Shown piece after piece: positions 1,149 through 39,786 of a stretch of DNA of 48,382 bases. The notes beneath the pieces are model-generated. The model was not told the origin of the DNA and searched no databases. It worked only from the letters and a program-made list of their open reading frames with translations. The position numbers and the translations under genes are program-made. The DNA is from a virus (lineage: Duplodnaviria; Caudoviricetes): positions 1 through 48,382 of the IMG/VR virus record IMGVR_UViG_3300027612_000008, one strand, 5' to 3'. Numbering within the stretch: position 1 is the stretch's first letter; every line of letters begins with the position of its first letter.

Positions 1149-1576
1149 TGGAACGTGTTTTTGTGGTGAATGGCTAATTGTTCGGCCATGTCCATGAATT
1201 GTTTGGCGGATTCGCGGATTGCGTCCGGATGGATTTTCCCGGAACCAGCCATGGCGGCATTGGCAATGGCGGCATCAATGGCCCAACGGGCCATCACGGA
1301 TGAATTCGGGCGTTGGTTACTGGTTCCGCCGGCGTTGGGTTTTGGACCTTGCGACCATTCCGGATTTTGAATGCGAACGCCGGGAAAACCATTGCGTTCA
1401 CCATGGATTGAAACGGCAACCTCATCGTTCAATTTGTACCATGGCGATTCCGATTTGGCGTTGGCCATTCCGGTTGTTCCATCGTCAAATTTGAGTTCGA
1501 ACGCATACATGCGGCCCGTTTTGCCGTCCCAATCAAATTGTGGTCGGCGCGTCATTTGAACAATTCGTTTTTTCAT
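1145..1576 (-). CDS. Conserved early protein, possibly OB-fold ssDNA-binding
   Basis: Start reassigned to MKKRIV (ATGA overlap); beta-rich N-domain FELKFDDG...ANAKSESPWY conserved with 24557-25000; function inferred. Confidence 0.55.
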   Translation of the reverse strand: MKKRIVQMTRRPQFDWDGKTGRMYAFELKFDDGTTGMANAKSESPWYKLNDEVAVSIHGERNGFPGVRIQNPEWSQGPKPNAGGTSNQRPNSSVMARWAIDAAIANAAMAGSGKIHPDAIRESAKQFMDMAEQLAIHHKNTFQ

Positions 1577-1800
1577 CGTGGTTGGTTTGATGTCTGATTT
1601 GGTTGCGCCCAAAGTGACGCACGGAAACGGGCCATGACGGCGTTGAAATCGTTTTGACGTGGTTTCGGTTGCCGGCGTTCGCCAAATGGCGTAAATGCGG
1701 CCCGAATCGCCGCCGGGCATGTTCCATGGATGGTTGCATACCATTCATAAAAATCCGCACATGGATTTTCAGGGAATGATGTTGATTTGATGTGTGCCAT
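1573..1800 (-). CDS. Cassette gene Z, hypothetical (75 aa, MAHIKSTSF)
   Basis: Homolog at 25308-25508; follows GC hairpin junction. Confidence 0.7.
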   Translation of the reverse strand: MAHIKSTSFPENPCADFYEWYATIHGTCPAAIRAAFTPFGERRQPKPRQNDFNAVMARFRASLWAQPNQTSNQPR

Positions 1801-1815
1801 GAATGGTGGTGAAAA

Positions 1816-1840
1816 TGCCGCCCGGCGATTCCGGACGGCG
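1816..1840. repeat. Cassette junction hairpin (degenerate copy)
   Basis: TGCCGCCCGG-CGATT-CCGGACGGCG. Confidence 0.7.
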
Positions 1841-1853
1841 GTTTGTGTTTTGG

Positions 1854-2198
1854 TCAATCGGTGGTGACTTGTGCAATTTCGTCGGCGGTCCACCAAAACG
1901 ATTCAATCACATGGAATGAAACGCCATCGGCCGATTCGGAAAATTCAACATTCAATTTGCCGAACATGGCGCGCAACGCGCGCCAAATGATGAGGAATTG
2001 ACCATGCGTCAACGTGTCGCATGTTATTTCGCCGAAATATTCAACATGGTCCGCCATGATTTCGTGATGAACGCCAATCGCAACATTTGGAACTTTGCCG
2101 AAATCACGGACGATTTTGCGCAAATCGTGCGCCATTTTTTTCATGTGTGAACCGCGTTCGGCGTTGGTGATGTGGGAATGTGTCATGGTGTTTGACAT
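1854..2198 (-). CDS. Cassette gene Y, hypothetical (114 aa; only in copy 1)
   Basis: ORF bounded by two junction hairpins, ACACC-ATG start context. Confidence 0.7.
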   Translation of the reverse strand: MSNTMTHSHITNAERGSHMKKMAHDLRKIVRDFGKVPNVAIGVHHEIMADHVEYFGEITCDTLTHGQFLIIWRALRAMFGKLNVEFSESADGVSFHVIESFWWTADEIAQVTTD

Positions 2199-2208
2199 GG
2201 TGTTTGGT

Positions 2209-2255
2209 GATGCCGCCCGGCAAATCCGGGCGGCGTTGGTTACTGGTGTGAATTA
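2209..2255. repeat. Cassette junction repeat with GC hairpin
   Basis: GATGCCGCCCGG-CAAAT-CCGGGCGGCGTT...CTGGTGTGAATTA; similar at 8650, 25664, 32252. Confidence 0.85.
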
Positions 2256-2630
2256 GGCGTTCGCGATTGTTTCGCCGTGGCGATTTTTGCCAATGAGTTT
2301 TTCAACCATTTTGTCAAAGGCAACCGAATTGGCATCCGTGGCCGGCTTGAATTCACCGGTTTTCGATTTGTAGTCGTGCAAACATGTCCATGAACCAATT
2401 TCGTTCACGCCAACGGACAACAACCACGTCCGGCCGTCTTTGTGCGTCAATTTGAACCACATGCCGCCATTGCCGTAAACGTGGCGATTTGTAACAATGG
2501 TGTCCAAAGTGAATTGCGGCAATGATGCCAATGCCAAAACGTTTGAAAATGCGGTTTGCGAATATCCGCATGCCGCTTCAATGGTGAACGTGTAATTCAT
2601 CGCGATGTGGTGTTGTTGTGCGCTGGTCAT
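2253..2630 (-). CDS. Cassette gene X, hypothetical (125 aa, MTSAQ)
   Basis: Near-identical homolog at 31839-32216 in a different slot; start after CA-rich leader. Confidence 0.8.
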   Translation of the reverse strand: MTSAQQHHIAMNYTFTIEAACGYSQTAFSNVLALASLPQFTLDTIVTNRHVYGNGGMWFKLTHKDGRTWLLSVGVNEIGSWTCLHDYKSKTGEFKPATDANSVAFDKMVEKLIGKNRHGETIANA

Positions 2631-2661
2631 GGTGATGTGTGTTGTGTGTGTGTGTTGTTTG

Positions 2662-2722
2662 ATGGCGTAAATGTACACAAAGATTCATTCCGCGCAATAC
2701 TTTCGTGAACTTTTTTTTTCAT
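2662..2722 (-). promoter_or_regulatory. Repeated early-type promoter, copy 1 of 6
   Basis: A-tract, TTG-N19-TACATTTA, resembling Bacteroidota -33 TTG / -7 TAnnTTTG. Confidence 0.75.
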
Positions 2723-2738
2723 TCCACGATTCCGGCCC

Positions 2739-2772
2739 AAAAAAACCGGTGACCACCACGGCCACCGGTTAC
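2739..2772 (-). terminator. Rho-independent terminator after lysis module
   Basis: AACCGGTGGCC-loop-GGTCACCGGTT followed by T-run; conserved at 26054. Confidence 0.8.
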
Positions 2773-2817
2773 CAAACACACAACAACGTGTTCACCAAAA
2801 CACGTCCGCAAATATCG

Positions 2818-3048
2818 TCAATCCCTTTCGAACATGGACAATGAAATTGGAATGATGGCAATGGCACACATCACCACCGCCGGCCACGTCACGCCGTGTT
2901 CAACGATGTCCGCACATGCCGTGGTTGCAATCAATCCACCAATGGTCCGTTTTGCGGACCATCGTTGCAAATCACCCTTTGTTTTGAATGCTTCGGACAC
3001 ATCCAAATTGCCGGCAACCTTCGCAAACCATCCCGGCAACGCCATCAC
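2818..3048 (-). CDS. Small two-TM membrane protein (holin-like)
   Basis: Two hydrophobic segments; in lysis module; conserved at 26132. Confidence 0.6.
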   Translation of the reverse strand: MMALPGWFAKVAGNLDVSEAFKTKGDLQRWSAKRTIGGLIATTACADIVEHGVTWPAVVMCAIAIIPISLSMFERD

Positions 3049-3221
3049 AAATCGTTTGGTGGCGTTTTCCGTTTGTCACCGGTGACGGCCGTAATGATTC
3101 GGTCCAAGTATTCAAAAACGCCGTGTGCCGGTGATTCGGACGGCAACAAATTGACAATGACTTTTGCGAATGTCAATGCGGCCAAAACCAGTTCGGCCCA
3201 ATTTTCGGTGATGAATTCCAT
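3045..3221 (-). CDS. Small membrane protein (holin-like, 58 aa)
   Basis: MEFITENWAELVLAALTFAKVIV; conserved start in copy 2. Confidence 0.6.
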   Translation of the reverse strand: MEFITENWAELVLAALTFAKVIVNLLPSESPAHGVFEYLDRIITAVTGDKRKTPPNDL

Positions 3222-3225
3222 GGCA

Positions 3226-3654
3226 TCAAAGTAACCACGAATATTTTGATTGAACGTCAAACGATGGACATGCCTTCGCGGCAAATTCGTTGTGGCCGTG
3301 CAACCTCATCGGCCCGAAAACCATGCGCAACGATTTCACCAAATGAATCATGGTCATTTCCTGATGTTCGGTCATCGTGTCGAATGGTTCACCATCGCGC
3401 ATGCCGCCAACGTAGCAAATGCCAATTGAATCATGATTGTGGCCGCGAACATGCGCGCCGATTTCATGCACCGGCCGCCCGAATTCCAACGTGCCATCGC
3501 GTTTGATGACGTAATGGTATCCCACATCCCGCCAACCATTGCCGCGCGGTTTTGGGGCCGTGTGCCACAATCGGATTTGTTCAACGCCAATGTCCATGGA
3601 TTCGGGCGTGGCCGAACAATGAATGATGATGCGGTTGATTGCGCGCATGGTCAT
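3226..3654 (-). CDS. Endolysin, N-acetylmuramoyl-L-alanine amidase (T7 lysozyme-like Amidase_2)
   Basis: IIIHCSAT, GYHYVI, GAHV.GHN..SIGICYVGG, GHNEF..KACPSF motifs. Confidence 0.93.
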   Translation of the reverse strand: MTMRAINRIIIHCSATPESMDIGVEQIRLWHTAPKPRGNGWRDVGYHYVIKRDGTLEFGRPVHEIGAHVRGHNHDSIGICYVGGMRDGEPFDTMTEHQEMTMIHLVKSLRMVFGPMRLHGHNEFAAKACPSFDVQSKYSWLL

Positions 3655-3869
3655 CGAATGGAATTGGCCGCCAACAAATTTCGAATTTCGTGGATGCCGT
3701 CCACAACTTCGCGAACCATCAATTTCAAATCGGAATTGTCGGATTCCAAACGTTTGATTCGTTCGTGTTGCCGGGCCAAAATCGTTTGCGTTTTGACATG
3801 CTGGTGAACCAGCGCACCGGCGTTCGCCAATGCCATTGCGACCAATGACCAAATTGTTGGTGAATCCAT
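3651..3869 (-). CDS. Single-TM plus coiled-coil protein (holin/XhlA-like)
   Basis: N-terminal hydrophobic helix then heptads; coupled to the amidase. Confidence 0.6.
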   Translation of the reverse strand: MDSPTIWSLVAMALANAGALVHQHVKTQTILARQHERIKRLESDNSDLKLMVREVVDGIHEIRNLLAANSIR

Positions 3870-3878
3870 GACCGCAAA

Positions 3879-4115
3879 TTACGAATCACCGGCGGCCAAT
3901 GAATCCAACAACGATGTCAATTCGGGCGGCATGGACCATTCCGTTTCGCCGGCTGATTTCAACGCGGCGTGATGGTCACGCACCAATTGAATTCCCGAAA
4001 CCATTTTTTTGAAAAATCCCACGCCGTACCAATCCCACATCATCCCGCAATTGCGTTGTTTGTGAACCGGCCACCGGGAATTGATTTCGTGTGTTGCGCC
4101 ATCGTCAATGTTCAT
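3879..4115 (-). CDS. Hypothetical, possible tail fibre chaperone (78 aa)
   Basis: Starts immediately after the fibre gene stop; conserved at 27179. Confidence 0.6.
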   Translation of the reverse strand: MNIDDGATHEINSRWPVHKQRNCGMMWDWYGVGFFKKMVSGIQLVRDHHAALKSAGETEWSMPPELTSLLDSLAAGDS

Positions 4116-4116
4116 G

Positions 4117-7100
4117 TCAAATGTTGATTGTGATTGTGATTGTATCGTTGGTGCCATCCGGCAAATCAAACTTTCCACATTCGATTTCCTCGCCTGAAAA
4201 ATCGCCCGTATTTGAACCCAAAACCACTAATTCATTGGCATTCGAAAATTGGTCGCGGAATGTCAATTGAACGGATGCAATGGTTATTGCCGTGTCAAAT
4301 TCCAATTGGCCCCAATCGGTGCCGGTTGGGCTGGAAATTGTCCACCAATCGGTGCCGGTTTCATTCGCGTCAAAACATTTCCAAAATTCGCGGCCGGGAT
4401 ATGAATAACCCCACGTCACAACCAAACCGGCCAATGATGTTGCCGATGTGAGTGCGGCGGACGGATGTTTTGTGCCGGTGGCGTTGGAACCTTCAAACAT
4501 GTCAATATTGTATGCCATCACATATCGTGAACCCGGTTCGCCGCCATCGTGTTTGACCTGAAATCGCCAATGCGTAAACGTTCGCGATGGTGTCACGTCA
4601 AATGTTTCGATGGTTTCAAGGGATTGAAATTTACCAGCATCTACGCCAACAATGCGCATTTCGTAATCGGTCGCAATGGATGTTGGAACAACAAATGACA
4701 CGTTGCCCGATGAATCAATTGAAACCGGGTTGGCGGTGATTTCGGTGCCGCTTGAATCGTAAATGGCCCCCACATACGTTCGCCCGTTGACGTGATTTGA
4801 AATCGTCGCCGTGGCGTTTGCGCCTTGCTGATATGAGCCGGACAAACCCGAAACAACCGGCGCGGCCGTGGTCAACAATCCCGATGTGATGCCGGTTTCG
4901 TCAACTTTGAAAATGGTGGTTCCATCGCCGTTTTTGATTTCGAATGATTGCCCGGTTTCGTTGTCGTCGTAATCCAAAACCACCACCACGTTTCCATTGG
5001 ACCGAATTTCAAGGTCCGCCGGTTGATTCGGCAACGAATTATTTGGTCCGATGATGGATGTGCCGCCGCTGGTGAACGTCAATCCACCGGAACCGATGAT
5101 GGCACCATTGGACGTGAACGTTCCACCGCACGTCAAATCGGATGTGAACGTGGCCGAACCTTGCGCGGAAAATGAACCCAACGTTGAAATTGTCCCAATG
5201 GCGGAAATTGCGCCGGTCGATAAAATGGACGCAAACGTTGGCGTGGATGAAACCGCAATGGTCAACGTGTCCGTGGCCGCGTTGGTGGTGACCACGGCGT
5301 TCGTTCCGGCGGCAATGGTCAACGTGTCCGTGGATGAATCCGCCACAATGGATGATTGACCGGACACGGCGATTGTTTCAAATGCGTTGCCGCTGGTGCC
5401 ACCACCACCGCCGGATGATTCGCCGTTGTTTCGCACCGCCATCACGCCGTTTGACGCGGCGTGGATGACAAACGCGGCCGCCAAAACCATTCCGGATGCC
5501 GGTTCGGTTGTGGTCCATGTTCCCGCCGTGGTTTGCGACACAAACAACACGTCACCATCCGTGAATCCGGACAACGAAACGCCGCGAATGGTTCCCCTAT
5601 CGAACACGACACCATCCGCGCCATTGGCAATGGCTTCGGCCGTCACGCCGATGAAATAACGTGCGTCAATTGTGCCGTCCGCAATCATTGGCGCGATGGT
5701 TTTGCGACCGGATGCGCCCAACGTCCCGTTGACGTACACCGGAACGCCGGCGGCGATGCTGGTGCCGGTATTGTTCCGACAAATCCACCAATCATTTTCC
5801 ATGTCCACGGCCGCCGTTCCGATTCCCAAAACGAACGCGGTGCGGTCACTATCAAAAACCATTTCGCCGTTGGCCGGTGTCAATTCCGCATTCGTAGCAA
5901 ATGACAAACGTTCGGCAATGGCAACGTTCAACGCCTCGACCACATCGGCAAACGTGGCCATGCCCGAAACGCCCAACCGGCCCACCACATCCAATTCAAA
6001 TGACGGCGATGAGGTGTTGACACCAACGCGGTTGCCGCGTGAATCGCCGGTGGCAAAAATGGCGGTGGATGAACCGGTGGATTCATCTTGCAAATCCACC
6101 ACAAATTTTCCGGGCGATTGTTCCGAAATCGAAACGGCCGTGTTGCCTGAATTGGATGTGAACGCCGCCGTGGTTTGCGTCAATGACATTTCCAAACCAT
6201 CCGTTTTTCCATCGGCATAAACAACCTTCGTGATGGTGTTGCCGGGGTCATCTTTGGGTTGAAACGTTCCCAGCAAATACGACAATTTGTTGGTCAACGA
6301 AACAACGGATGCCGCATTGGAATTGGTGGTTGATTCCACCGAATCCAAATTGACGGATTGTGTGATGGTGATGAAATCGGTTTTGGTTTGAATGGCCGCC
6401 GTGGTTGATTCCAAATTGGCGATGGCCGTGCCGGCGGTGCCAACGGCGTTTGATAATCCGTTGGAATCGTTGCCCGGATTGAAACCGCCGGGCGTGACCT
6501 CATCGGACACGTTTTTTTTGCCGGTGGTGGCTTCGGTGATGTTGGTGGTGTCACGTTGAATTCGGGCCGCCTCAAAATCCAAAATTCGCGCATTGGTGTT
6601 CATCGTGAATTCCGTGAACAAAAACACGTCCGAATCAATTTCAATCGTGTTCAACATGGTCACCAACGCGCCGATGGTGTTTGGTGCGGCCACATGGATT
6701 TGACCGGCCCAAATCGGAATTGGATTGCGCATGGTGCGCAAAATTTCATTCACGGCCAATCGGTTAATTCCAACGCCCGTCCCGGTGTAATTGGACGAAT
6801 TCCAACCGGCGGCATCCGTCCAATCCGAACCATCCCAAATGGACAAAACGCCGCGTTCGGAATCGCTGATTCGGTCGCCCAACGTCACCACGTCATCAAT
6901 TTTGATTGCGCGGTTCACCTCATCGCCAATTGCCGAAAATGTGATTTCGGAACCGCCGCCGTCCACGTCCGCACGATATGCCCGAACGTTTTGCGCAAAG
7001 TATGCCGGCGCATCCGCCACGTTCAAACCATCGTCAATGGCCACAAACGTTCCGTCATTGGTCACCAAATAAATTGACAACGTGATTTCCAACCCGGATT

Positions 7101-8457
7101 GCGTCGAAGGCAATGCGCCCGTTGTAAACGTCAATCCAATGTTTTGATTTGTGCCGTTGTTGCGGTCGAATGGTTCGGACAAAAACGTTGTGGTTCCGCT
7201 GGTGCCGGACCAGTCCAACGGCCCGTAATTGGCCAAATCATACGTTCCAACCGAACCATCATCAAATCCGAAATTTCCTTGTCCACCAAACGTGATGGCG
7301 GCCGTGGCGTATTGCGAACCGCATTTGAATTGAACGCCAATCCCAATGCGACCAACGCGTTCATCCGCGTCCGAAATTCCAAATGCCGGGTCCACGCCCG
7401 GCAACGTGACGTTCACCACGCCAACAAAATTGATGAGTTGCCCGGCAAAGTAGTCAACGCCAAAATCCGTGATGGCCGTTGTGAACGCGTTTTGGGCTAT
7501 ATACGGCGACCAAACCACCGGCGCATTGCCGTTGTATTCGCGCGTTCGTTTTGCTTCGCTTAATGGCGGCGTAAATCGTTTCTCATTGCCGGCCATTTGG
7601 ACCAAATCGGTTCCCGTGGCCAACAACGTTTCCGTGGCCGTGCTGGTCCCTACAAAATCGCCGTTGATGTCGTAATTATGAAACGCAATCGCCGTGTTGT
7701 TTTGATACGCGCCAATTGGCACAAAGTAGAAAACGCCACCGGCCAAAAACAACCGGGCGTTTTGCGATTTGCACACGTTCCGCACCACGTCAAATGCCGT
7801 CATGAATTCCCGGTTGCCGTCATCGTCGATGGCCCAAAACGATTCATGATGCGTTCGGATGTTTTCCATGAACCGATTTGTCACGGACATGTTCGTTGCC
7901 TTAAAATCGTCGGCCACTCGAACGAAATCGTCATTGGTTTCGAACGGATGCAACGCCCGTGTTTTGGCCAACGCGTTCACCAAATGTTCAATCAACGTGG
8001 CGTGGCCGGTGTACGCCGTGGCCGGGTCCGATTTGTATGCAATCCGTTTCAAATTGCCCAAATCATCGGATGCGGTCAACATGGATGAACGCGGCAATGG
8101 TTCGTTCATCATGGTCCATTGGTCGGATAACAAAACGCCGAACCATTCCAATTGATACGAACCGCCAACCAATTTGTGAATGGTGACCGAAAATCGCGAT
8201 TCGGCGGCCGTGGCCAACGCATTGATGAACGCCGTGTGTGCGGCGGTTTGTTCAATGAATTCGAATTGAACGGACGAACCAATGACCGGTTGAAAAACGT
8301 TTTCCGTGTCGCCTTTGTAAGACAAGGAAAACCCGGATGCGCCCAACGTGAATTCCGTTGGTTCCGTGCCGGCAAATTCGGAATCATGGATGTTGATTCG
8401 CCATTGTTGCCCGAACAAATCCGTGAATTCCGCGAAATATTTTGTTGCGTTTGCCAT
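4117..8457 (-). CDS. Tail tip/fibre (receptor-binding) protein, 1446 aa
   Basis: Downstream of tape measure; G/T/S-rich beta repeats; C-terminal discoidin-like beta domain (inferred). Confidence 0.8.
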   Translation of the reverse strand: MANATKYFAEFTDLFGQQWRINIHDSEFAGTEPTEFTLGASGFSLSYKGDTENVFQPVIGSSVQFEFIEQTAAHTAFINALATAAESRFSVTIHKLVGGSYQLEWFGVLLSDQWTMMNEPLPRSSMLTASDDLGNLKRIAYKSDPATAYTGHATLIEHLVNALAKTRALHPFETNDDFVRVADDFKATNMSVTNRFMENIRTHHESFWAIDDDGNREFMTAFDVVRNVCKSQNARLFLAGGVFYFVPIGAYQNNTAIAFHNYDINGDFVGTSTATETLLATGTDLVQMAGNEKRFTPPLSEAKRTREYNGNAPVVWSPYIAQNAFTTAITDFGVDYFAGQLINFVGVVNVTLPGVDPAFGISDADERVGRIGIGVQFKCGSQYATAAITFGGQGNFGFDDGSVGTYDLANYGPLDWSGTSGTTTFLSEPFDRNNGTNQNIGLTFTTGALPSTQSGLEITLSIYLVTNDGTFVAIDDGLNVADAPAYFAQNVRAYRADVDGGGSEITFSAIGDEVNRAIKIDDVVTLGDRISDSERGVLSIWDGSDWTDAAGWNSSNYTGTGVGINRLAVNEILRTMRNPIPIWAGQIHVAAPNTIGALVTMLNTIEIDSDVFLFTEFTMNTNARILDFEAARIQRDTTNITEATTGKKNVSDEVTPGGFNPGNDSNGLSNAVGTAGTAIANLESTTAAIQTKTDFITITQSVNLDSVESTTNSNAASVVSLTNKLSYLLGTFQPKDDPGNTITKVVYADGKTDGLEMSLTQTTAAFTSNSGNTAVSISEQSPGKFVVDLQDESTGSSTAIFATGDSRGNRVGVNTSSPSFELDVVGRLGVSGMATFADVVEALNVAIAERLSFATNAELTPANGEMVFDSDRTAFVLGIGTAAVDMENDWWICRNNTGTSIAAGVPVYVNGTLGASGRKTIAPMIADGTIDARYFIGVTAEAIANGADGVVFDRGTIRGVSLSGFTDGDVLFVSQTTAGTWTTTEPASGMVLAAAFVIHAASNGVMAVRNNGESSGGGGGTSGNAFETIAVSGQSSIVADSSTDTLTIAAGTNAVVTTNAATDTLTIAVSSTPTFASILSTGAISAIGTISTLGSFSAQGSATFTSDLTCGGTFTSNGAIIGSGGLTFTSGGTSIIGPNNSLPNQPADLEIRSNGNVVVVLDYDDNETGQSFEIKNGDGTTIFKVDETGITSGLLTTAAPVVSGLSGSYQQGANATATISNHVNGRTYVGAIYDSSGTEITANPVSIDSSGNVSFVVPTSIATDYEMRIVGVDAGKFQSLETIETFDVTPSRTFTHWRFQVKHDGGEPGSRYVMAYNIDMFEGSNATGTKHPSAALTSATSLAGLVVTWGYSYPGREFWKCFDANETGTDWWTISSPTGTDWGQLEFDTAITIASVQLTFRDQFSNANELVVLGSNTGDFSGEEIECGKFDLPDGTNDTITITINI

Positions 8458-8480
8458 GCCTGAAATTTCGGGAATTCATC

Positions 8481-8517
8481 GCAAACAAAAACGCCACGCG
8501 AAATCGCATGGCGTTTG
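8481..8517 (-). terminator. Rho-independent terminator closing cassette slot 2
   Basis: AAACGCCATGCGATTTCGCGTGGCGTTTTTGTTT; conserved at 31783. Confidence 0.8.
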
Positions 8518-8536
8518 ATGCTGGTGGTTTCATCTA

Positions 8537-8629
8537 TCAACCGACAATGAAACAAAATGTGCCGTTTGTTATTTCCTGCATTCCGTTTCCAAGATTGTTC
8601 ACGGACCAATTATTGGGATTTGATTTCAT
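8537..8629 (-). CDS. Cassette micro-ORF, 30 aa (MKSNPNNWSVNNLGNGMQEITNGTFCFIVG)
   Basis: Hand-translated; ATG directly follows the standard ACAACACACATCACC leader; below the ORF-track cutoff. Confidence 0.55.
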   Translation of the reverse strand: MKSNPNNWSVNNLGNGMQEITNGTFCFIVG

Positions 8630-8649
8630 GGTGATGTGTGTTGTTTAAT

Positions 8650-8694
8650 GATGCCGCCCGGCGATTCCGGGCGGCGTTGATTGCTGGTGAATTA
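8650..8694. repeat. Cassette junction repeat with GC hairpin
   Basis: GATGCCGCCCGG-CGATT-CCGGGCGGCGTT...CTGGTGAATTA. Confidence 0.85.
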
Positions 8695-8934
8695 GATGGC
8701 AACGAATTTGATTGATTCGATGCGAATGCCTTTGGCGATGGCTTGTGCGCGCCATTGTTTCGCGTAATCTTTCGCACGGCCGCCCGGAAACGCGGTGCGG
8801 CCTTTGTATTCCAAACGGATGTTTTCGGACCGGTGCGTTTCGCCGAAAATGTCGCGTTCGAAGGTCAATTCCACGGCGTAAAATTTGGCGGTCAACGTGG
8901 CGTTGAAATCGGTGGTGGTGGTTGCGGTGTTCAT
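8692..8934 (-). CDS. Cassette gene W, hypothetical (80 aa, MNTATTTTDF), copy 1 of 3
   Basis: Identical protein at 25708 and 32294 with synonymous differences. Confidence 0.8.
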   Translation of the reverse strand: MNTATTTTDFNATLTAKFYAVELTFERDIFGETHRSENIRLEYKGRTAFPGGRAKDYAKQWRAQAIAKGIRIESIKFVAI

Positions 8935-8958
8935 CGTGGTGTTGTGTTGTGCGTTGTT

Positions 8959-9020
8959 CATGGTGTAAATGTACACAAAGATTCATCCCGCGCAATACTT
9001 TCGTGAACTTTTTTTTTCAT
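8959..9020 (-). promoter_or_regulatory. Repeated early-type promoter, copy 2 of 6
   Basis: Same ~60-bp motif as 2662-2722. Confidence 0.75.
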
Positions 9021-9024
9021 TCCG

Positions 9025-11472
9025 TCAAAATCCGCGAACGCGTGACCGGTCAAACATCGCACGTTCGTTCGAAATCAAAATGTCATTTCCGCTAATGCGG
9101 CCGGTGACCACCACGTTCGTTCCGGTGTCACCAATCAACGAACGCAATTTGTTCAATGGCGCGATGACTTCGGGGTTTGCGCGCGCGCCGGCATATTCGC
9201 CGACCAAACCGGCCACCGGCCCGGAAACAATGCCGCCATTGGCAAATCCGGTCAATCCCTTGAACACACCACGCACCAACGCCATTCCGGATGCAATCAA
9301 CGTTGGAATGACAAACGCGGCCGCCGGACCAGCGTTGGCACCGGTTGCCGTGGCCGCTTGAATCGCATGCGCCGTGGCCGCCTTAAATGCCGTGTCAACG
9401 ATGTTTGACAATGCTTGTTTCATTGCTTCGCGTCCGCCCTCCGCGCCCATGATGATTTGCGCAAATGCGTCACCGAATTGTTCGCCCATCATTTGCGCCG
9501 AATTGGCCATTTGTTCGAAAAACTCATTGGAATTCACCAATTCGTCATTGAACGCGTTGAACCATTGCCGGAATTTCGTTTGTTCGGGCAATTGCAACGT
9601 GTCCATCAACGATGGACCAACAACCAGTTTCCGCGTATCAATCGGCGCAACATCGGCCGTGGCCGCCGCTGGTGTATTCATCGCGGCATTTGGTTTTGCC
9701 GCACCACCACCACCACCGAACATTCCAAATCCCTTTGACAAGGTTTTGAACAAGTTTGAACCGGTGGTTTCGGTTTCCTCGAATTCGTAGCGCAACCCGG
9801 CCAAAAATTCGGCCGCGCCCGTCATCATAGATTCCCAACCGCCCAACAAATTCGATTCAACGCCAATGGCGTTCAAACCAAAATCAATCATGCCCAACAA
9901 TTCGCCAATGAGGAAATCAACCCCACGCAAAATCAATTGGGCCGCACCAACCAAAACGTTGACCAATGATTGCCACATTCGGTCCCAATCGCCGGTGAAC
10001 AAACCGATGAAAATGCCCAACGCATTTTGGATGATGTCAAACGCGCCGGTCAAAACATCAACCACGAAATCAAACGCACGGGCAATTTTGTTGGTGATGA
10101 TGTCGCCGAACCATTCCCAATATAACGTCAATGCCGCCACCAAAAAATCCCAAACGCCAACGATGGTATCAACGGCGGCAATGAACATGTTTTTCAGTCC
10201 GTCCAAAAACGCCACGCCATCGCCGGTGGTGAAATATGCCACGATGGATTCCCAATTGGCCCGAATCAATGCCACGGCGGCAATCACGCCGGCCACCGCC
10301 GCCAAAACTGGTCCCGTTATTACGCCGGCAATCAAACCAAAACCGGCGATGATTTGCGGCAAAAAAACCAGCAACGGACCAATGGCCGCCGCGATGCCGC
10401 CAACAATCATCATGGTTTGCCGCATGGCCGGCGACATGTTCGAAAATGCTTCGGCCACGCGCCCAACGAAATTGGCCAATTTTTCCATGGTCGGTGCCAA
10501 CGCCGTTCCCAATGCGATTTGCGCGCCTTCAATGGCCGATTGCATCCGCGCCATTGCGCCGGCACTTGTGTTGTCCATGATTGCCGCCATGCCGGCCGCC
10601 GCACCATCGGCGTTCCGGAACGATTCGGTCAATTGGTCCACGCCGGATTTGTTTTCGCCCAAAACCAACAACGCGGTTTGCGCCCGGCGGCCAACCTCAT
10701 CGAATGCCGCGTCCAATGTCAATCCGGATTCCGCCAATTGGGCCATTCGTTCCCCCACATCACCACCGCCGGCGGCCATTTGTTGAAATATCATCCGCAA
10801 TGACGTTCCCGCTTGCGAACCTTTGATTCCGGCGTTGGCCATTTGGCCCAACATCGCGGTTGTTTCTTCAATCGAAACGCCGGCGGCCGCCGCGACCGGT
10901 GCAACATATTTCATCGCATCCTGAAACGATTCCATGTCCAATGCGGACGATGAAAACGCGGTGGCCATGACATCGGTTACATGCGTGGTTTGCGACACGT
11001 CCAAACCGAATCCGCGCAACGTTGCGCCGGCAACCTCGGCCGCTTGTGCCAAATCCGAATCCGTGGCCTGTGCCAACGATAATGTGGCCGCCGTCACGCC
11101 TTCAATTTCCGTGGCGGTGAATCCCAGTTTTGCGAATTCCAATTGTAACCCGGCCACATCGGATGCGGTGAAAATGGTGGTCCGTCCAAGTTCCTTCGCA
11201 TTGGATTCGAGGCGCGCAAATTCATCGGCGGTCGCACCGGAAACCGCTTGAACCTTTGCCATGGCCAATCCAAATTGCGATGCGGTTTGGAATGACGTTG
11301 CACCAATGGCCGCCAATGGTGCCGTGACTGATGCCGACATGGTGCGACCAACGCGTTTCATGTTTCGGCCGAACGCGCGGAATTTTCCCATTGCGCGTCC
11401 AATTGCCTTGTCCATTGAACGCGTATCCAATCCCAACGTCACCAGCAATGAACCAATTCCCTTTGCCATCAT
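9025..11472 (-). CDS. Tail tape measure protein (TP901 family)
   Basis: AKVQAVSGAT...LGRTTIFTA..., GIKGSQAGTSLR core, W-spaced repeats, FANGGIVSGP...VGE...PEVIAPL C-terminus. Confidence 0.95.
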   Translation of the reverse strand: MMAKGIGSLLVTLGLDTRSMDKAIGRAMGKFRAFGRNMKRVGRTMSASVTAPLAAIGATSFQTASQFGLAMAKVQAVSGATADEFARLESNAKELGRTTIFTASDVAGLQLEFAKLGFTATEIEGVTAATLSLAQATDSDLAQAAEVAGATLRGFGLDVSQTTHVTDVMATAFSSSALDMESFQDAMKYVAPVAAAAGVSIEETTAMLGQMANAGIKGSQAGTSLRMIFQQMAAGGGDVGERMAQLAESGLTLDAAFDEVGRRAQTALLVLGENKSGVDQLTESFRNADGAAAGMAAIMDNTSAGAMARMQSAIEGAQIALGTALAPTMEKLANFVGRVAEAFSNMSPAMRQTMMIVGGIAAAIGPLLVFLPQIIAGFGLIAGVITGPVLAAVAGVIAAVALIRANWESIVAYFTTGDGVAFLDGLKNMFIAAVDTIVGVWDFLVAALTLYWEWFGDIITNKIARAFDFVVDVLTGAFDIIQNALGIFIGLFTGDWDRMWQSLVNVLVGAAQLILRGVDFLIGELLGMIDFGLNAIGVESNLLGGWESMMTGAAEFLAGLRYEFEETETTGSNLFKTLSKGFGMFGGGGGAAKPNAAMNTPAAATADVAPIDTRKLVVGPSLMDTLQLPEQTKFRQWFNAFNDELVNSNEFFEQMANSAQMMGEQFGDAFAQIIMGAEGGREAMKQALSNIVDTAFKAATAHAIQAATATGANAGPAAAFVIPTLIASGMALVRGVFKGLTGFANGGIVSGPVAGLVGEYAGARANPEVIAPLNKLRSLIGDTGTNVVVTGRISGNDILISNERAMFDRSRVRGF

Positions 11473-12094: not shown

Positions 12095-12104
12095 CGCTGG
12101 TCAA

Positions 12105-12548: not shown

Positions 12549-12551
12549 GTC

Positions 12552-12791: not shown

Positions 12792-12818
12792 GATTCAAAT
12801 TTAGGAATTTCGAACGCA

Positions 12819-15377: not shown

Positions 15378-15397
15378 GGTTCGAATTTACGACAAAC

Positions 15398-25643: not shown

Positions 25644-25663
25644 GGTGATGTGTGTTGTTTAAT

Positions 25664-26053: not shown

Positions 26054-26086
26054 AAAAAAACCGGTGACCACCACGGCCACCGGTTA
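26054..26086 (-). terminator. Rho-independent terminator after lysis module
   Basis: Same hairpin and T-run as 2739-2772. Confidence 0.8.
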
Positions 26087-31757: not shown

Positions 31758-31782
31758 GCCTGAAATTTCGGGAATTCAGCGC

Positions 31783-31817
31783 AAAGAAAAACGCCACACG
31801 AAATCGCATGGCGTTTG
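31783..31817 (-). terminator. Rho-independent terminator closing slot 2
   Basis: AAACGCCATGCGATTTCGTGTGGCGTTTTCTTT. Confidence 0.8.
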
Positions 31818-31838: not shown

Positions 31839-32216
31839 TTAGGCATTGGCGATGGATTCGCCGTGGCGATTGTTGCCAATGAGTTTTTCAACCATTTTGT
31901 CAAACGCAACCGAATTGGCATCCGTGGCCGGCTTGAATTCACCGGTTTTCGATTTGTAGTCGTGAAAACATGTCCATGAACCATGTTCGTTGACGTTCAC
32001 CGACAAAATCCACGTCCGGCCGTCCCGATGCGCCAATTTGAACCACATGCCGCCGTTGTTGTAAACGTGCCGGTCCGTTACTATTGTGTCCAAAGTAAAT
32101 GACGGCAATGATGCCAATTCCAAAACGTTTGAAAATGCGGTTTGCGAATATCCGCATGCGGATTCGATGGTGAACGTGCAGTTCATCGCGATGTGGTGGT
32201 GTTGTGCGCTGGTCAT
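31839..32216 (-). CDS. Cassette gene X (125 aa), here in slot 2
   Basis: Homolog of 2253-2630, which lies in slot 1 of copy 1. Confidence 0.8.
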   Translation of the reverse strand: MTSAQHHHIAMNCTFTIESACGYSQTAFSNVLELASLPSFTLDTIVTDRHVYNNGGMWFKLAHRDGRTWILSVNVNEHGSWTCFHDYKSKTGEFKPATDANSVAFDKMVEKLIGNNRHGESIANA

Positions 32217-32251
32217 GGTGATGTGTGTTGTGTGTGTGTGTGTTGTTTGAA

Positions 32252-32296
32252 GATGCCGCCCGGCGAATCCGGGCGGCGTTGGTTGCTGGTGAATTA
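32252..32296. repeat. Cassette junction repeat with GC hairpin
   Basis: GATGCCGCCCGG-CGAAT-CCGGGCGGCGTT...CTGGTGAATTA. Confidence 0.85.
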
Positions 32297-32536
32297 GATG
32301 GCAACGAATTTGATGGATTCGATGCGAATGCCTTTGGCGATGGCTTGTGCGCGCCATTGCTTCGCGTAATCTTTCGCACGTCCGCCCGGAAACGCGGTGC
32401 GGCCTTTGTATTCCAAACGGATGTTTTCGGACCGGTGCGTTTCGCCGAAAATGTCGCGTTCGAAGGTCAATTCAACGGCGTAAAATTTGGCGGTCAACGT
32501 GGCGTTGAAATCGGTGGTGGTGGTTGCGGTGTTCAT
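32294..32536 (-). CDS. Cassette gene W, copy 3 of 3
   Basis: Protein identical to the other W copies. Confidence 0.8.
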   Translation of the reverse strand: MNTATTTTDFNATLTAKFYAVELTFERDIFGETHRSENIRLEYKGRTAFPGGRAKDYAKQWRAQAIAKGIRIESIKFVAI

Positions 32537-32560: not shown

Positions 32561-32622
32561 CATGGTGTAAATGTACACCAATATTCACACCGCGCAACAT
32601 TTCCATGAACTTTTTTTTTCAT
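32561..32622 (-). promoter_or_regulatory. Repeated early-type promoter, copy 5 of 6 (most divergent)
   Basis: Spacer bases vary while the A-tract, TTG and TACATTTA boxes are retained. Confidence 0.75.
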
Positions 32623-36389: not shown

Positions 36390-36416
36390 GTTTCAAATTT
36401 AGGAATTTCGAACGCA

Positions 36417-37598
36417 TCAATTGTATTGATTCGCGACAATCAATCCGTGATGGAATGTCGATGCCAAATTTGACGCATAGCCAAACGTGGGGCCGTTGGT
36501 CACCGCGTATGAAATTTGGTTGTCCTTTGTGCGATTGCCGAAAACCAAATTGCCGCCGTATTGCCTCAAATGTGGGTCAATGAATGGTGTGTAGGCACCA
36601 CCCCACGCATTGACGTAATCGGTATATTCAAACATTCCGACGAATTCGGAAACGTCCGCCAATCGCCATGATTGGCCGCCGTAATCCAAGGAATTTGCCC
36701 ATTCAATCCATTCGGATTGCGTCAAATTCAAACGTTCGGTTTGCGCCCGCATCACATACACAATCAACCCGGTCAAATGGTCAAAACACATTGCCGGGTT
36801 TTGCGAATTGTTCGATGCTGATTTGTGGAAATCTTCAACGAATTGTTCCCCCAAATCATTTGTCCACCGGTAGCGATTGCCAAACCGATTGTCAAACATC
36901 AAAAGCGAATGCGCATCATCCGGAAAATATCCGTTGGCGCGAATCGCCGTGTTCAATGGATTCACGGGCAATGTGTAATCATACGTCCCGGCGGCGCGGT
37001 GCCATTCCACCGAACCGGTTTCATTGAACGTTTGCAATCCGTCCCATGGAATAATTCGTGCGTAAATGTGGCCGGCCGGCGGCGGCGGCAATTCGGACGT
37101 GGGCGGCGCGTTTTGGATGCATTGATAAGTTCCGCCCGGTTGAATTTGGTGAATGGTTCCGTCACCATCGGTCACGGCCACCGGTTGCCCCAAATACACC
37201 GCGCCGGAATCGCGCCGGACATGCGCTTGAAATTCGAGAACCGCGAAATATTTGCGCGGTGAATCAACAACCTCCATTGAACCGGTTTGGAACTGGAACG
37301 ATTCAACGGCCACGTCATCGTTTTGAAACGGCACCCGGTCCAATGCCATTCGAACGTTGTTTTGAATCGCGGACGCGCTTGCAAACGTTGCCGCATGACA
37401 AACAATTTCAACATCAATTTCATCAACTTGTGACGGACCGGTTTTCGTGTCATTCGGTGACATCGTGATGACATCGTATGTGATGAACGGCAACGTTTTT
37501 GATTGCGCCGCCGTCACCGGGAAAATGCGGTTGCCAACATCGGCCGCAACATCGGCGGCGTTTGACAACAATTCAAAAATTGCGATTCCAACGTTCAT
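36417..37598 (-). CDS. Tail terminator / DUF1566-like fusion (copy 2)
   Basis: Homolog of 12819-14000. Confidence 0.7.
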   Translation of the reverse strand: MNVGIAIFELLSNAADVAADVGNRIFPVTAAQSKTLPFITYDVITMSPNDTKTGPSQVDEIDVEIVCHAATFASASAIQNNVRMALDRVPFQNDDVAVESFQFQTGSMEVVDSPRKYFAVLEFQAHVRRDSGAVYLGQPVAVTDGDGTIHQIQPGGTYQCIQNAPPTSELPPPPAGHIYARIIPWDGLQTFNETGSVEWHRAAGTYDYTLPVNPLNTAIRANGYFPDDAHSLLMFDNRFGNRYRWTNDLGEQFVEDFHKSASNNSQNPAMCFDHLTGLIVYVMRAQTERLNLTQSEWIEWANSLDYGGQSWRLADVSEFVGMFEYTDYVNAWGGAYTPFIDPHLRQYGGNLVFGNRTKDNQISYAVTNGPTFGYASNLASTFHHGLIVANQYN

Positions 37599-38092
37599 TG
37601 CGTTCGTGCCAATTCGGATTCAACTTGTTTTTGATATGCTTGCAATTGGCGAAACCGCCACGCCTCAATCCCTTTGGAACGGGATTGAATGGTTTGTTCA
37701 ATCACGCCGGCATTGTGGTTGGTGCCTTCAATGTATTGTTGGTCCGATTCCACAATGTATGAAAACCACGCGTCACGCGTTTTGCCAACCTTGCGCCCGG
37801 TTCGCGGTCCCGCCCAATATGCGTTGCCATCGTCATTGACCAGCCACGCACCAATTGAACGTTTGTAGGTTCCCGGCTTAATTTTAAGCGGTTTCCGGCC
37901 GTCCCTTGAAACGTGAATGGTTTTGTCTGATGACGTAATTGCACGGCGCATGGCGCGCGCAAACAAATTGGCGGCCGTTTCATTGATGAGGCGCAACCGC
38001 GTATTTGTTTCGGCGTATCGTTTGTGCAATTTGTTCAACTTTCGTTCCAATTGCCGCATGCCTTCGATGCCTGAAACCATTTCAGCCATCAC
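37595..38092 (-). CDS. HK97 gp10-like protein (copy 2)
   Basis: Homolog of 13997-14497. Confidence 0.75.
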   Translation of the reverse strand: MMAEMVSGIEGMRQLERKLNKLHKRYAETNTRLRLINETAANLFARAMRRAITSSDKTIHVSRDGRKPLKIKPGTYKRSIGAWLVNDDGNAYWAGPRTGRKVGKTRDAWFSYIVESDQQYIEGTNHNAGVIEQTIQSRSKGIEAWRFRQLQAYQKQVESELARTQ

Positions 38093-38421
38093 GAAACGTG
38101 TTCGGCAATTAAACGAAAATCAACGCCACGTTCCAATTCATGAACGGCGATGATGTCAAATGTTTGTCCATCGTAAACCAGTCGGTCCGCCGTGGTGATG
38201 GTCCGTGAATCGCTGGTGTTGCGAATGGTCCATTCGGCCATTTTCACCGAACGTTCCGCACCATCAACCAACGTTTCCGTTGAACCGGATTTGCGAATGG
38301 TCAACGCGGCCCAACAATTGAACGCGGTGGTCCAAACCAATTCGCGTTCACCAAACGCGTTGGCCGTTTCCGTGAAACGTTCAATGGCAATCCGCCGGTC
38401 CAATTTGCCAATCCGCATCAC
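38089..38421 (-). CDS. Head closure protein (copy 2)
   Basis: Homolog of 14494-14826. Confidence 0.9.
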   Translation of the reverse strand: MMRIGKLDRRIAIERFTETANAFGERELVWTTAFNCWAALTIRKSGSTETLVDGAERSVKMAEWTIRNTSDSRTITTADRLVYDGQTFDIIAVHELERGVDFRLIAEHVS

Positions 38422-38972
38422 GCAAAAATTCGGAATGGTGACAACAACGAATGAACGCCAAACGGAATTTCATTCACGGACCGAATTTCGGCCGCCGTTC
38501 GGTTTTCGTACATGTGACCAACCAACAAACGAATGGCGTGAATGACGGGCGCGGGAATCGCGTTTTCGGCATGCCCAACGTTGCAATTGACAATCACCCG
38601 GTTCAACGAGTAATCAAACAACGATGGCACGTCATGAAATCGGATGCGCGCATGTGGCCCGGCCAAATCCGCGTACCAATTCGACGTTGGCAACGTTTGC
38701 AATCCGCCGTTTTCGTCAATGTATTGAACCGACGAAATTTCGTTGACTGGTCCAACATCGAATGTGACGTTTTGCCATTGGTCCAAATACACCACGGCAT
38801 CAACATCACCGATGACGCGCCCGGTGATTTGTTGCACAAAATCAATCGCCGTGTCCCGCATGGCCTCAATCAATGCGTCATCATCGGAAACGTCAACGCG
38901 CAAATGTGATTTCAAATCGTCAACCGAAATCACGTCATCCAACGTTGGTGTGGTGGTGTAGATTGTGACCAT
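38418..38972 (-). CDS. Head-tail connector gp6-like (copy 2)
   Basis: Homolog of 14823-15377. Confidence 0.92.
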   Translation of the reverse strand: MVTIYTTTPTLDDVISVDDLKSHLRVDVSDDDALIEAMRDTAIDFVQQITGRVIGDVDAVVYLDQWQNVTFDVGPVNEISSVQYIDENGGLQTLPTSNWYADLAGPHARIRFHDVPSLFDYSLNRVIVNCNVGHAENAIPAPVIHAIRLLVGHMYENRTAAEIRSVNEIPFGVHSLLSPFRIFA

Positions 38973-38992
38973 GGTTCGAATTTACGACAAAC

Positions 38993-39025
38993 GAAAAACG
39001 CCGGCGCAATGGCCGGCGTTTTTTG
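38993..39025 (-). terminator. Rho-independent terminator closing slot 3
   Basis: AAAAACGCCGGC stem with T-runs on both sides. Confidence 0.8.
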
Positions 39026-39043
39026 GTTGTGATGGACTGGTTT

Positions 39044-39430
39044 TCAAATTTCGAAGGCATCGAAAAACCGGTTCATGTAGTCAATCCGATTTCGCATTTG
39101 ACGCAATTTCAATTCATGTGCCATCGTCGTTTGTCGATTGACGCGCGCGGCAAATTCCTGTTTTTGTGCCAAATTGTAGTCATCCCACAATTTGTCAAAT
39201 GCTGGTGACAAAATTTCAACGGCGATTTCCAATTGTGCATGCCCATTGTGCAACAATTCCAATTCCGAATCCGGACGCGTTTTCACGCCGGCGGATTCCA
39301 ATTCATCGCGCATGTATGCCCGGCCCAATTCAAAATTTCGGTCCATCAATTCATGCAAATCCATGATGTCAATGGTGATGATTCCGCGTTGCGCAATTGC
39401 GCGGTTGGTGTTTTTCGTGTCTTGTGACAT
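39044..39430 (-). CDS. Cassette gene U (128 aa)
   Basis: Homolog of 15449-15838. Confidence 0.8.
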   Translation of the reverse strand: MSQDTKNTNRAIAQRGIITIDIMDLHELMDRNFELGRAYMRDELESAGVKTRPDSELELLHNGHAQLEIAVEILSPAFDKLWDDYNLAQKQEFAARVNRQTTMAHELKLRQMRNRIDYMNRFFDAFEI

Positions 39431-39472
39431 GATGTTTGGGTTTTGTGTGTGTGTGTTGTGTGCTGGTGTGAA

Positions 39473-39697
39473 TTAACGTTGACGGAAAATCATGTTCAAT
39501 TTGCCGTTGGTCATGTGGATGATGGCCACGTTTTCGCCGTTGACGATGTGTTGTGAAACGCTGATGAATTCCGGTTTCGCGGCGTAATGTTCGACGATTT
39601 CGGATGCCACGGCGCGCCGGTGGTTTTCGTTGGTGCATTCCAACAATTCAACCCGGTCATTCATGGTGTTCGTGGTGGTGATGGTGAAACGTTGCAT
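39473..39697 (-). CDS. Cassette gene V (74 aa)
   Basis: Homolog of 15880-16104. Confidence 0.8.
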   Translation of the reverse strand: MQRFTITTTNTMNDRVELLECTNENHRRAVASEIVEHYAAKPEFISVSQHIVNGENVAIIHMTNGKLNMIFRQR

Positions 39698-39724
39698 GGT
39701 GTGTGTTGTGTGTGTGTGTTGTTT

Positions 39725-39786
39725 GATGGTGTAAATGTACACAAAGATTCATTCCGCGCAATACTTTGATGAACTTTTTTTTTCAT
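39725..39786 (-). promoter_or_regulatory. Repeated early-type promoter, copy 6 of 6
   Basis: Same ~60-bp motif. Confidence 0.75.

Follow-up and report, generated by a model that had tools for sequence, protein, structure and literature searches.

Two probable phage strains and their three gene slots

We analyzed a 48,382-nt stretch of DNA (the window; IMG/VR record IMGVR_UViG_3300027612_000008, Caudoviricetes), in which small genes occupy three sites, or slots, each opened by a copy of one and the same promoter. The phage is a marine HK97-type siphophage of ~23.5 kb. The window holds two near-copies of its genome, mostly 86-89% identical, with all genes on the minus strand. The genes are those of terminase, portal, protease-capsid fusion, connector, tail, tape measure, fibre, amidase, Cro-like protein, O-like initiator and HNH protein. 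As an earlier interpretation of the letters alone (the sequence-only reading) had proposed, each strain has three slots: slot 1 after lysis, slot 2 between tape measure and fibre, and slot 3 between capsid and connector. The slot genes, labeled U to Z, are arranged differently in the two strains, P and Q. In strain Q, slot 1 contains X, Y and Z, slot 2 contains W and a peptide open reading frame (ORF), and slot 3 contains V and U. In strain P, slot 1 is made up of W, a second peptide ORF, Z and a 103-aa gene, slot 2 of W and X, and slot 3 again of V and U. Coordinates of all these features are given in Table 1.

The window most likely represents two co-occurring strains of ~23.5 kb, joined by the assembler at a 336-bp identical block. 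This block is the longest exact run between the two copies, the next internal one being 114 bp. A second assembly (G005) follows the same 47-kb path and both starts and ends inside the block. In sequencing run X1, which may be the source sample and where contig depth is only indicative, the window's own allele had a depth of 26-28 at 23.7-30.7 kb versus 33-40 for the other allele, and 40 at 37.5 kb. We rejected the reading of the window as a genuine duplicated genome of 47 kb, given the presence of the P capsid on an ENA contig of 23,416 bp and ten relatives with 99-100% estimated completeness, which are 22.6-25.6 kb long. The slot contents that the sequence-only reading gave for each copy are as described, but its two consecutive copies are most likely not genomes. 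After regrouping into P and Q, slot 3 alone changes owner, with V and U there in both strains, and the permutation of slot contents survives the correction.

Beyond a 127-bp circular overlap, the contig runs into a third variant (47194-48382), ~91% identical to positions 1-1307. The tail terminator gene (12819-14000) codes for 393 residues including a C-terminal extension of ~265 aa; the versions in L072/L073 are ~128 aa long and lack the extension. The 336-bp block covers the 3' end of the tail terminator gene, suggesting a recent exchange.

Promoter copies and their palindromes

All six ~60-bp promoter copies reported by the sequence-only reading were recovered on the minus strand. A two-box pattern matched 6 of 6 copies and nothing in any of 100 shuffled sequences. 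The promoter core in the window is TTG-N19-TACATTTA, while relatives carry TACATTTG or TACATTGC. A search of IMG/VR with the promoter pattern returned four records, all from the window's clade, and two matches were obtained in GTDB genomes, both with atypically long spacing. According to the accessible part of PMC6847099, the promoter consensus of Bacteroidetes is TTTG/TAHHTTTG and their leaders are A-rich, without a Shine-Dalgarno sequence. The -7 element of the window resembles the TAHHTTTG box of that account (PMC6847099), and by this style of promoter and leader the host is likely a member of Bacteroidota.

Each promoter in the window includes two 18-bp palindromes, ATGAA-N8-TTCA(T/C) (O1) and (A/G)TGAA-N8-TACAT (O2), of which O2 overlaps the -7 element. 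Palindrome matches in the window are nearly confined to the promoters (12 of 13 matches within the six copies; shuffle mean 1.13). Across 14 promoters the palindrome arms are largely kept and the spacers are variable; 13 of these promoters have O1 and O2 spaced by 34-35 or 44-45 bp, and the remaining one by 31 bp. The two palindromes are likely operators, and the 77-aa Cro-like protein is a candidate for their binder. Promoters group by lineage and not by slot, as the mean number of differences per 42 nt is 6.6 within a lineage across slots versus 19.4 for the same slot across lineages (P and Q pooled).

Strain Q has ~70 extra bases (39799-39870) between the capsid terminator and the slot-3 promoter. 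In run X4, which comes from another study, this flank is found joined to the lysis terminator (the shorter side of the joint has 39 letters) and the depth there is about twice that of the rest, hinting at a slot-3-type promoter in slot 1 of the X4 strain.

Elements between genes and at slot ends

The other shared parts claimed by the sequence-only reading are likewise far more frequent than in shuffled sequences: there are 5 copies of the hairpin (shuffle mean 0.0), 6 of the stop context (0.0) and 5 of the leader string (0.07). Slots 2 and 3 do close, as it had also proposed, with a T-tailed hairpin and a box just before the ATG. Slot 1 is without an end terminator and continues into regulator and replication genes. 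The slot-3 re-start box is present also in relatives with an empty slot, hence the box is older than the cassettes. The inter-gene hairpin is stable (z -2.3 to -6.2) and has perfect stems of 9-11 bp with no U tract. Its role as a sense-strand terminator is ruled out by the missing U tract; it is more likely an mRNA stabiliser or an antisense terminator.

A -7-like re-start box is found directly before a 79-aa gene upstream of the major tail gene as well (12789-12803 and 36394-36401). This site is cassette-free in the window's clade, and the equivalent interval in L264 holds a cassette array. The first 10 bases of the 31-aa peptide ORF in slot 1 of P (25634-25643) are the same as those of gene U (15829-15838) and may be left over from a crossover shortly after the ATG. 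Gene U has a 22-residue N-terminal motif common to cargo in slot 1 of G001 and slot 3 of L072.

Table 1. Features of the two strains and their slots (positions in the window; aa, amino acids)
Feature	Location	Coordinates	Strand	Remarks
Strain P		~13130-36391		23,598 bp; putative figure-eight half
Strain Q		~36728-47066 + 1-12793		23,468 bp; putative figure-eight half
336-bp identical block		12794-13129 = 36392-36727		likely assembly join of P and Q
Cro-like helix-turn-helix gene, 77 aa		23561-23794; other copies 161-394, 47227-47460	-	P22_Cro E ~1e-5, under Pfam cut-off
Post-lysis terminator (hairpin + T tract)	upstream of slot 1	Q 2740-2770; P 26055-26085	-
Promoter	Q, slot 1	2660-2722	-	O1 2705-2722, TTG, O2 2671-2688 overlapping -7-like TACATTTA
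Promoter	Q, slot 2	8958-9020	-	O1 9003-9020, O2 8969-8986; directly after tape measure gene
Promoter	Q, slot 3	39725-39786	-	O1 39769-39786, O2 39735-39752; behind capsid terminator 39872-39898
Promoter	P, slot 1	25975-26036	-	O1 26019-26036, O2 25985-26002
Promoter	P, slot 2	32561-32622	-	O1 32605-32622, O2 32571-32588
Promoter	P, slot 3	16129-16190	-	O1 16173-16190, O2 16139-16156; behind capsid terminator 16211-16236
Gene X, 125 aa	Q, slot 1	2253-2630	-
Gene X	P, slot 2	31839-32216	-	88% identical to Q copy
Gene Y, 114 aa	Q, slot 1	1854-2198	-	Q only; no family match
Gene Z	far end of slot 1	Q 1573-1800; P 25308-25508	-	75 aa in Q, 66 aa in P; homolog in G001
Gene W	Q, slot 2	8692-8934	-	80 aa, or 89 aa if started at the upstream ATG; all three copies give the same protein
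Gene W	P, slot 1	25708-25950	-
Gene W	P, slot 2	32294-32536	-
30-aa peptide ORF	Q, slot 2	8537-8629	-
31-aa peptide ORF	P, slot 1	25548-25643	-
Gene V, 74 aa	slot 3	P 15880-16104; Q 39473-39697	-	99% identical
Gene U, 129 aa	slot 3	P 15449-15838; Q 39044-39430	-
103-aa gene	P, after Z	25000-25311	-	G001 has it in the same place (45% identical), Q lacks it; not a cassette
CA-rich leader ending at X ATG	Q, slot 1	2628-2660	-	5' homology break between X copies
Stop context TAATTCACACCAG + GC hairpin	Q, slot 1	2212-2255	-	hairpin 2212-2234, no U tract; 3' homology break of X
Second GC hairpin	Q, slot 1	1817-1839	-
Stop context, GC hairpin, CA leader	Q, slot 2	8627-8694	-	hairpin 8653-8675; homology with P slot 1 stops exactly at ATG
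Stop context, GC hairpin, CA leader	P, slot 1	25641-25710	-	hairpin 25667-25689
Stop context, GC hairpin, CA leader before X	P, slot 2	32214-32296	-	hairpin 32255-32277
End terminator + re-start box before tail-fibre gene	slot 2	Q 8455-8516; P 31755-31816	-	terminator 8487-8516
End terminator + -7-like re-start box before head-tail adaptor	slot 3	P 15375-15423; Q 38970-39018	-	terminator 15399-15423

Breaks in homology and reality of the permutation

The sequence-only reading had located the homology breaks between the two genome copies at leaders, ATGs or gene junctions. Mapping of the breaks between P and Q showed that 6 of 7 indeed fall within the repeats (in the upstream palindrome, leader, ATG or stop context); the seventh departs from this, as it lies inside the 3' end of Z. 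The homology of X begins at the first bases of the CA leader and stops in the stop context. That of W between slot 1 of P and slot 2 of Q begins at the upstream palindrome and stops exactly at the next ATG, and the W of P slot 2 diverges from the other W copies in the leader. In G001 and L072/L244, both ends of all four within-genome repeat alignments are within repeats.

The slot junctions recur in other assemblies. L251 matches Q from W via the fibre to X, Y and Z at 99.99%, L075 matches P from slot 1 through to the capsid at 100%, and the ENA protein P0131 (a mis-called 255-aa frame) links the promoter of slot 2 in P to X, with W and the hairpin in between. P0131 differs from the window at 4 residues, at which it has the alleles of other W copies; gene conversion or a collapsed consensus may account for this mixture. 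The 23,416-bp contig is listed for P0131 as well as for the P capsid, and the two were taken as parts of one contig. These assemblies (L251, L075 and P0131) may not rest on independent reads. A contig from run X4, composed of the promoter, W, hairpin, 937 unplaced letters, terminator and fibre, represents a third slot-2 content. W has three distinct entries and three exits, and therefore phasing errors cannot drop it from slot 1 or slot 2. The W copies have at most 114 bp in common as an exact run, and different promoters at most 37 bp, with the assembler k taken as 127 bp, the length of the circle-closing overlap (1-127 vs 47067-47193). The W copies differ at 3-4 of 38 fourfold sites, a divergence as low as which is seen in only 3 of 51 core-gene windows.

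Slots in close relatives

Slot contents are not fixed among close relatives, the capsids of which are 76-80% identical. They hold differing genes, and the X family is found at four places: Q has it in slot 1, P in slot 2 and L071 and L073 in slot 3, and the distant phage L264 has it in a five-promoter array. G001 has an X homolog (43%) in slot 3, and its slot 2 contains three other genes behind the promoter and a 119-aa gene ahead of it. Its slot 1 comprises three tandem promoters, the second of which is preceded by a 133-bp duplicate of the genome's own lysis terminator and promoter. G001 also has its own version of the hairpin, present in slots 1 and 2. In L072 and L244, which overlap exactly by 123 bp, slot 2 has two promoters, and ahead of the second stands a 135-bp copy of the capsid terminator and promoter that belong to slot 3 of L072. 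The gene (~80 aa) behind this second promoter in L244 is 62% identical to a gene in slot 1 of G001. Z and the 103-aa gene, which had been counted among the shuffling cargo, do not behave as such: Z comes last in slot 1 of Q, P and G001, and the 103-aa gene comes next in P and G001. The 119-aa gene of G001 (phrog_4301; L220:7681-8040), situated between tape measure and slot-2 promoter, has a 53% homolog in L182.

A search with a 16-base promoter core returned 66 stretches, 60 of them on other records, none window-like beyond one 29-bp match. A longer pattern gave 9 new metagenome loci, 5 of which are chance matches, and scans with the tape-measure, fibre and replication-protein sequences yielded no new genome. 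Among cultured phages, none covers the capsid-protease fusion, and the best TerL matches are ~37% identical. The amidase matches (~52-55% identical) are spread over many hosts and so do not name any. Contigs of the RNA runs X2 and X3, present in small shares, were not used as evidence of expression or habitat.

Empty and filled slots in the wider family

The close clade is marked by AG depletion (see below). In 118 loci that lack this depletion and include both the end of the capsid gene and the adaptor, the gap between capsid and adaptor has a median of 103 bp and exceeds 300 bp in 8, and the gap between tape measure and fibre is 3-51 bp in 28 of 28 such loci. Five loci of lineage 2 (L151, L153, L158, L171 and L172) have the same promoter version in slot 3, followed by five mutually unmatched first ORFs. 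A shared slot-3 terminator ends four of these five loci; L158 is cut. Slot 3 is empty in L176/L178, with a capsid 95% identical to that of L171. The empty and filled alleles, as represented by L176 and L171, differ exactly at the terminator T tract, and the re-start box is present in both. The slot-3 promoter type of lineage 2 also stands after the lysis terminator in L265, L266, L164 and L268, with a different first gene in 4 of 4. It has its own palindrome, TACG-N10-CGTA, which is degenerate in L268. Judging by these sequences, slot 1 would be the native early promoter and slots 2 and 3 its ectopic copies. On a quickly searched capsid tree (45 rows chosen from 111; L173, cut before the adaptor, scored as unfilled), the filled state of slot 3 needs 7 gains or losses, at least 6 of which are forced by well-supported branches.

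In L264, which shows no AG depletion and has a tape measure 40% identical, five promoter-gene units (three located by pattern and two by eye) lie between the tail terminator and the major tail gene, the fourth containing the X homolog. These tandem Bacteroidota-type units (L264:400-3300) also include a phrog_3754 gene. ArdC, an anti-restriction protein, is encoded in slot 3 of L127/L128 and L133 (ArdcN E ~1e-28 and 1e-24) and is the only functionally named cargo among 21 distant cargo proteins scanned. These ArdC genes (L127:3336-4253, L133:2523-3416) belong to the capsid-adaptor gap of a third lineage, in which there is also a two-promoter tandem cassette (L132:5400-6900).

In the window, AG/CT is extremely depleted (observed/expected 0.13), as is TA (0.20), and GATC, AGCT and CTAG are absent. 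The AG depletion affects both strands and is common to the close clade (0.12-0.20; L071-L073, L220, L244) but not to distant relatives; it may reflect avoidance of a host restriction or modification system. Our literature search on this depletion returned nothing relevant. Many related contigs (L074-L219) start 40-150 bp before the small terminase gene, and the complete ones stop just after the HNH gene, consistent with fixed cos-type genome ends.

Cargo genes and recombination machinery

Gene X belongs to a small unannotated family, with 5 further proteins in a 50%-identity cluster search; W has one related cluster besides its own, and U has none. X was the only one of the U-Z products folded. 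Foldseek comparison of its model (pLDDT 73) with PDB and BFVD returned no match at E<=0.001, and its best VIA Z score was 5.2 (root-mean-square deviation 4.1, 84 aligned). In the ESM Atlas, both X and W reached a best score of 0.81, and WDGH and PsiB are no more than weak leads. A fold of the 143-aa gene after slot 1, predicted with no alignment (pLDDT 51.5), gave generic helix matches alone, and the label of this gene as similar to single-stranded DNA-binding protein (SSB), derived from the strand pattern, is a guess. The slot cargo likely consists of counter-defence or host-takeover genes, and the slot promoters are predicted to be early.

In agreement with the sequence-only reading, no tyrosine or serine recombinase was detected in the records G000 and G001 (PF00589, PF00239; controls positive in 14/14 and 12/14 genomes). 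Recombination proteins were found in distant relatives: L270 encodes an exonuclease VIII-like protein, and L266 encodes a NinG/Rap-like protein and an SSB, together with a protein that weakly matches RecT (E 0.014).

Probable origin of the slots and exchange of their genes

P and Q each carry one promoter-plus-leader unit at three sites. In our view, the two in the virion block were probably copied from the native post-lysis promoter, which is predicted to be the early one, and the small genes probably move between sites and genomes by recombinase-free crossovers in the short shared repeats. Slot 1 lies behind the lysis terminator, and its reading continues into the regulator and replication genes. 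From there, a promoter with its leader, gene and hairpin would have been copied to a site isolated by a terminator T tract and a late re-start box. Paired crossovers, with the 5' one in the promoter or leader and the 3' one in the stop context, hairpin or leader, may then replace, add or relocate genes during replication or co-infection; small circles like those of the promoter-early stem-loop (PeSL) cassettes could do the same. Host RecA or annealing proteins would drive the exchange. If the palindromes serve as operators for the Cro-like protein, a landed gene would be switched on early and off with the rest, and a fixed packaging size would favour swapping over accumulation. The proposal of the sequence-only reading that recombination between the repeats swaps genes among slots is supported with respect to the movement of genes and the breaks at repeats, both in the window and in relatives, whereas recombination itself was not directly observed.

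A number of observations weigh against this account. Z is always last in slot 1, its homology begins in the leader yet stops inside the coding sequence at the 3' end, and V and U occupy slot 3 in both strains. A 130/138-aa gene is found in slot 2 of both G001 and L244, and the ArdC gene of L127/L128 is inverted. Slot intergenic DNA is nearly all repeat, so random recombination combined with selection for intact genes predicts the same breaks; breaks at repeats alone cannot separate guided recombination from such selection. The backbone itself is mosaic, as seen from the 336-bp identical block and the 3 of 51 core windows that are as similar as W. Co-evolution with a repressor specific to each lineage could be part of the reason why promoters are homogenised. 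In the window the last base of the -7 element is A, in the consensus it is G, and promoter and leader style are all that points to the host. Nothing significant was found in Pfam, PHROGs, NCBIfam or PADLOC for those of the U-Z genes that were scanned. The recombination proteins of L266 and L270 have no match in the window or G001, nor was any recombination gene found in the clade, so exchange would rely on host recombination or an unrecognised small protein. Four genome types were recovered for the clade, plus partial evidence from run X4, and the evidence consists of assembled contigs, with no circle, recombinant read or transcript start among it.

One alternative, classical moron accretion, would bring genes in by rare illegitimate recombination, with survival if the joins fall between genes, and the repeats would be selected regulatory signals without a role in mobility. 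A-rich unstructured leaders lacking a Shine-Dalgarno sequence are indeed normal in Bacteroidetes (accessible part of PMC6847099), the change from empty to filled slot in lineage 2 needs T-tract overlap alone, and one P/Q break is inside Z, while selection favours intergenic breaks anyway. Accretion is nonetheless an unlikely source of the repeats, whose near-identity over 60-135 bp extends to the terminator stems and to the palindrome spacers, sequences that differ from lineage to lineage. Neither does it readily account for the recurrence of the same genes in different slots, or for a homology that breaks off precisely at the ATG, both for W/peptide and in G001 slot 1. The core sites of tyrosine recombinases have arms around an 8-bp spacer, which the 18-bp palindromes (5-bp arms, 8-bp core) recall, and one W break is at the edge of O1; a host or helper site-specific recombinase acting in trans would make this a true integron-like system. 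We consider this very improbable given the lack of PF00589 and PF00239 matches noted above and the position of most breaks in leaders, ATGs and terminators instead of palindromes. In addition, O2 overlaps the -7 element, the spacing changes in steps of one helical turn, as for operators, and the arms differ in lineage 2.

The permutations might also be assembly artefacts arising from two strains collapsed at repeats. The whole contig does look chimeric, older assemblies break at W (L075, L245, L251) and the ENA ORF across slot 2 of P has mixed W alleles. Against this, the exact repeats between slot copies and the runs between promoters stay below the k that the overlap suggests, any phasing leaves W in slots 1 and 2, the junctions are reproduced by L251, L075 and P0131, and relocation is also evident in relatives at 76-80% capsid identity; an artefact is accordingly hard to credit. 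A broader form of the copied-promoter account is rather doubtful. It would have a genome-wide recombinase-free cassette exchanger in a minimal phage, the one early promoter having been copied with both operators to insulated places in the virion operon. Whatever gene came to lie behind a standard leader would enter one early repressor-controlled regulon, and a counter-defence pool would be traded among slots and across distant Bacteroidota phage lineages, often enough to become visible within one infection.

If copied promoters and recombinase-free crossovers do explain the slots, they would indicate how moron sites arise and become interchangeable slots, namely by copying of the early promoter to the T tract of a terminator and later swapping of genes at the leaders that they share. 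One abundant family of ~23-kb aquatic phages displays the empty, the filled and the relocated state, so the old question of linker-guided versus random phage mosaicism would become testable in a very small genome. The promoter patterns, with ArdC serving as positive control, would also offer a route to harvesting unannotated early genes whose products are candidates for counter-defence in Bacteroidota hosts.

Comparison with known systems

Integrons are arrays of small accessory genes with changing order behind a promoter. The slots resemble them in having small accessory genes in changing order behind a promoter, and the sequence-only reading had called them integron-like. This was an overstatement. 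There is no IntI (PF00589 in 0 of 2 records, control 14/14), a single Pc promoter is lacking, and no attC-type site was identified, although no search with an attC model was made. The slots have the look of ectopic copies of the post-lysis promoter. The cassettes bring their own promoter, which belongs to the repeated unit and recurs at each slot and inside slots. PAK_P1-like Pseudomonas phages, as described in the available part of PMC4309531, similarly have a near-perfect promoter repeat of ~41 nt beside variable small genes; in these phages the repeats are confined to one 11-kb variable region. No description of the present phage family or its slot feature was found in the literature searched, from which most subscription papers and supplements were outside coverage.

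The two analogues named by the sequence-only reading, morons and PeSL cassettes, proved to be the right ones. Known systems of both kinds are characterized here from the accessible parts of PMC2839356 and, for PeSLs, PMC4122927. Morons of lambdoid/HK97-type phages (via PMC2839356) likewise have their own promoter and terminator between head or tail genes, with the site empty in relatives. Their gain is independent of conserved flanks (PMC2839356), whereas slot flanks are shared, are copied between sites and contain the breaks. Morons are solitary and often inverted (PMC2839356), in contrast to the co-directional slot genes, for which no integrase or prophage form was found in the phage.

PeSLs have been described in the T4-type phages RB49/phi1, PST/T4 and nt-1/KVP40 (PMC2839356, PMC4122927). 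Both they and the slots consist of repeated ~100-bp elements (terminator, promoter, leader, ATG) with ORFan cargo, differ between close relatives by insertions, replacements and displacement whose crossovers lie within the elements, lack a dedicated recombinase, and occur in lineage-specific sequence versions (PMC2839356, PMC4122927). The composite PeSL order (stem-loop terminator, A/T-rich stretch, promoter, translation signal, ATG) is the same in slots 1 and 3 of P and Q, and G001 and L072/L244 contain duplicated terminator-to-leader units of 133-135 bp; slot 2 of P and Q differs in that its promoter has no upstream terminator. Insertions, deletions and replacements end in elements, as with PeSLs (6 of 7 P/Q breaks; the T tract in L171 vs L176). 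The differences are also clear. The genome is that of a 23.5-kb HK97-type siphophage and not of a T4-type myovirus, and the sigma-70-like -35/-10 promoter and Shine-Dalgarno sequence of PeSLs are replaced by the Bacteroidota-type TTG-N19-TACATTTA and a CA leader. Each promoter copy has two palindromes, and the separate inter-gene hairpin forms a second junction. PeSL clusters are described as rarer in structural regions, while two of the three slots lie among virion genes, and mini-circles have been shown for PeSLs (in the parts of the sources cited), while the slots are known from contigs alone. Overall, the slots work like PeSL cassettes but are not members of that class as defined, since phage type, promoter type and location among structural genes differ.

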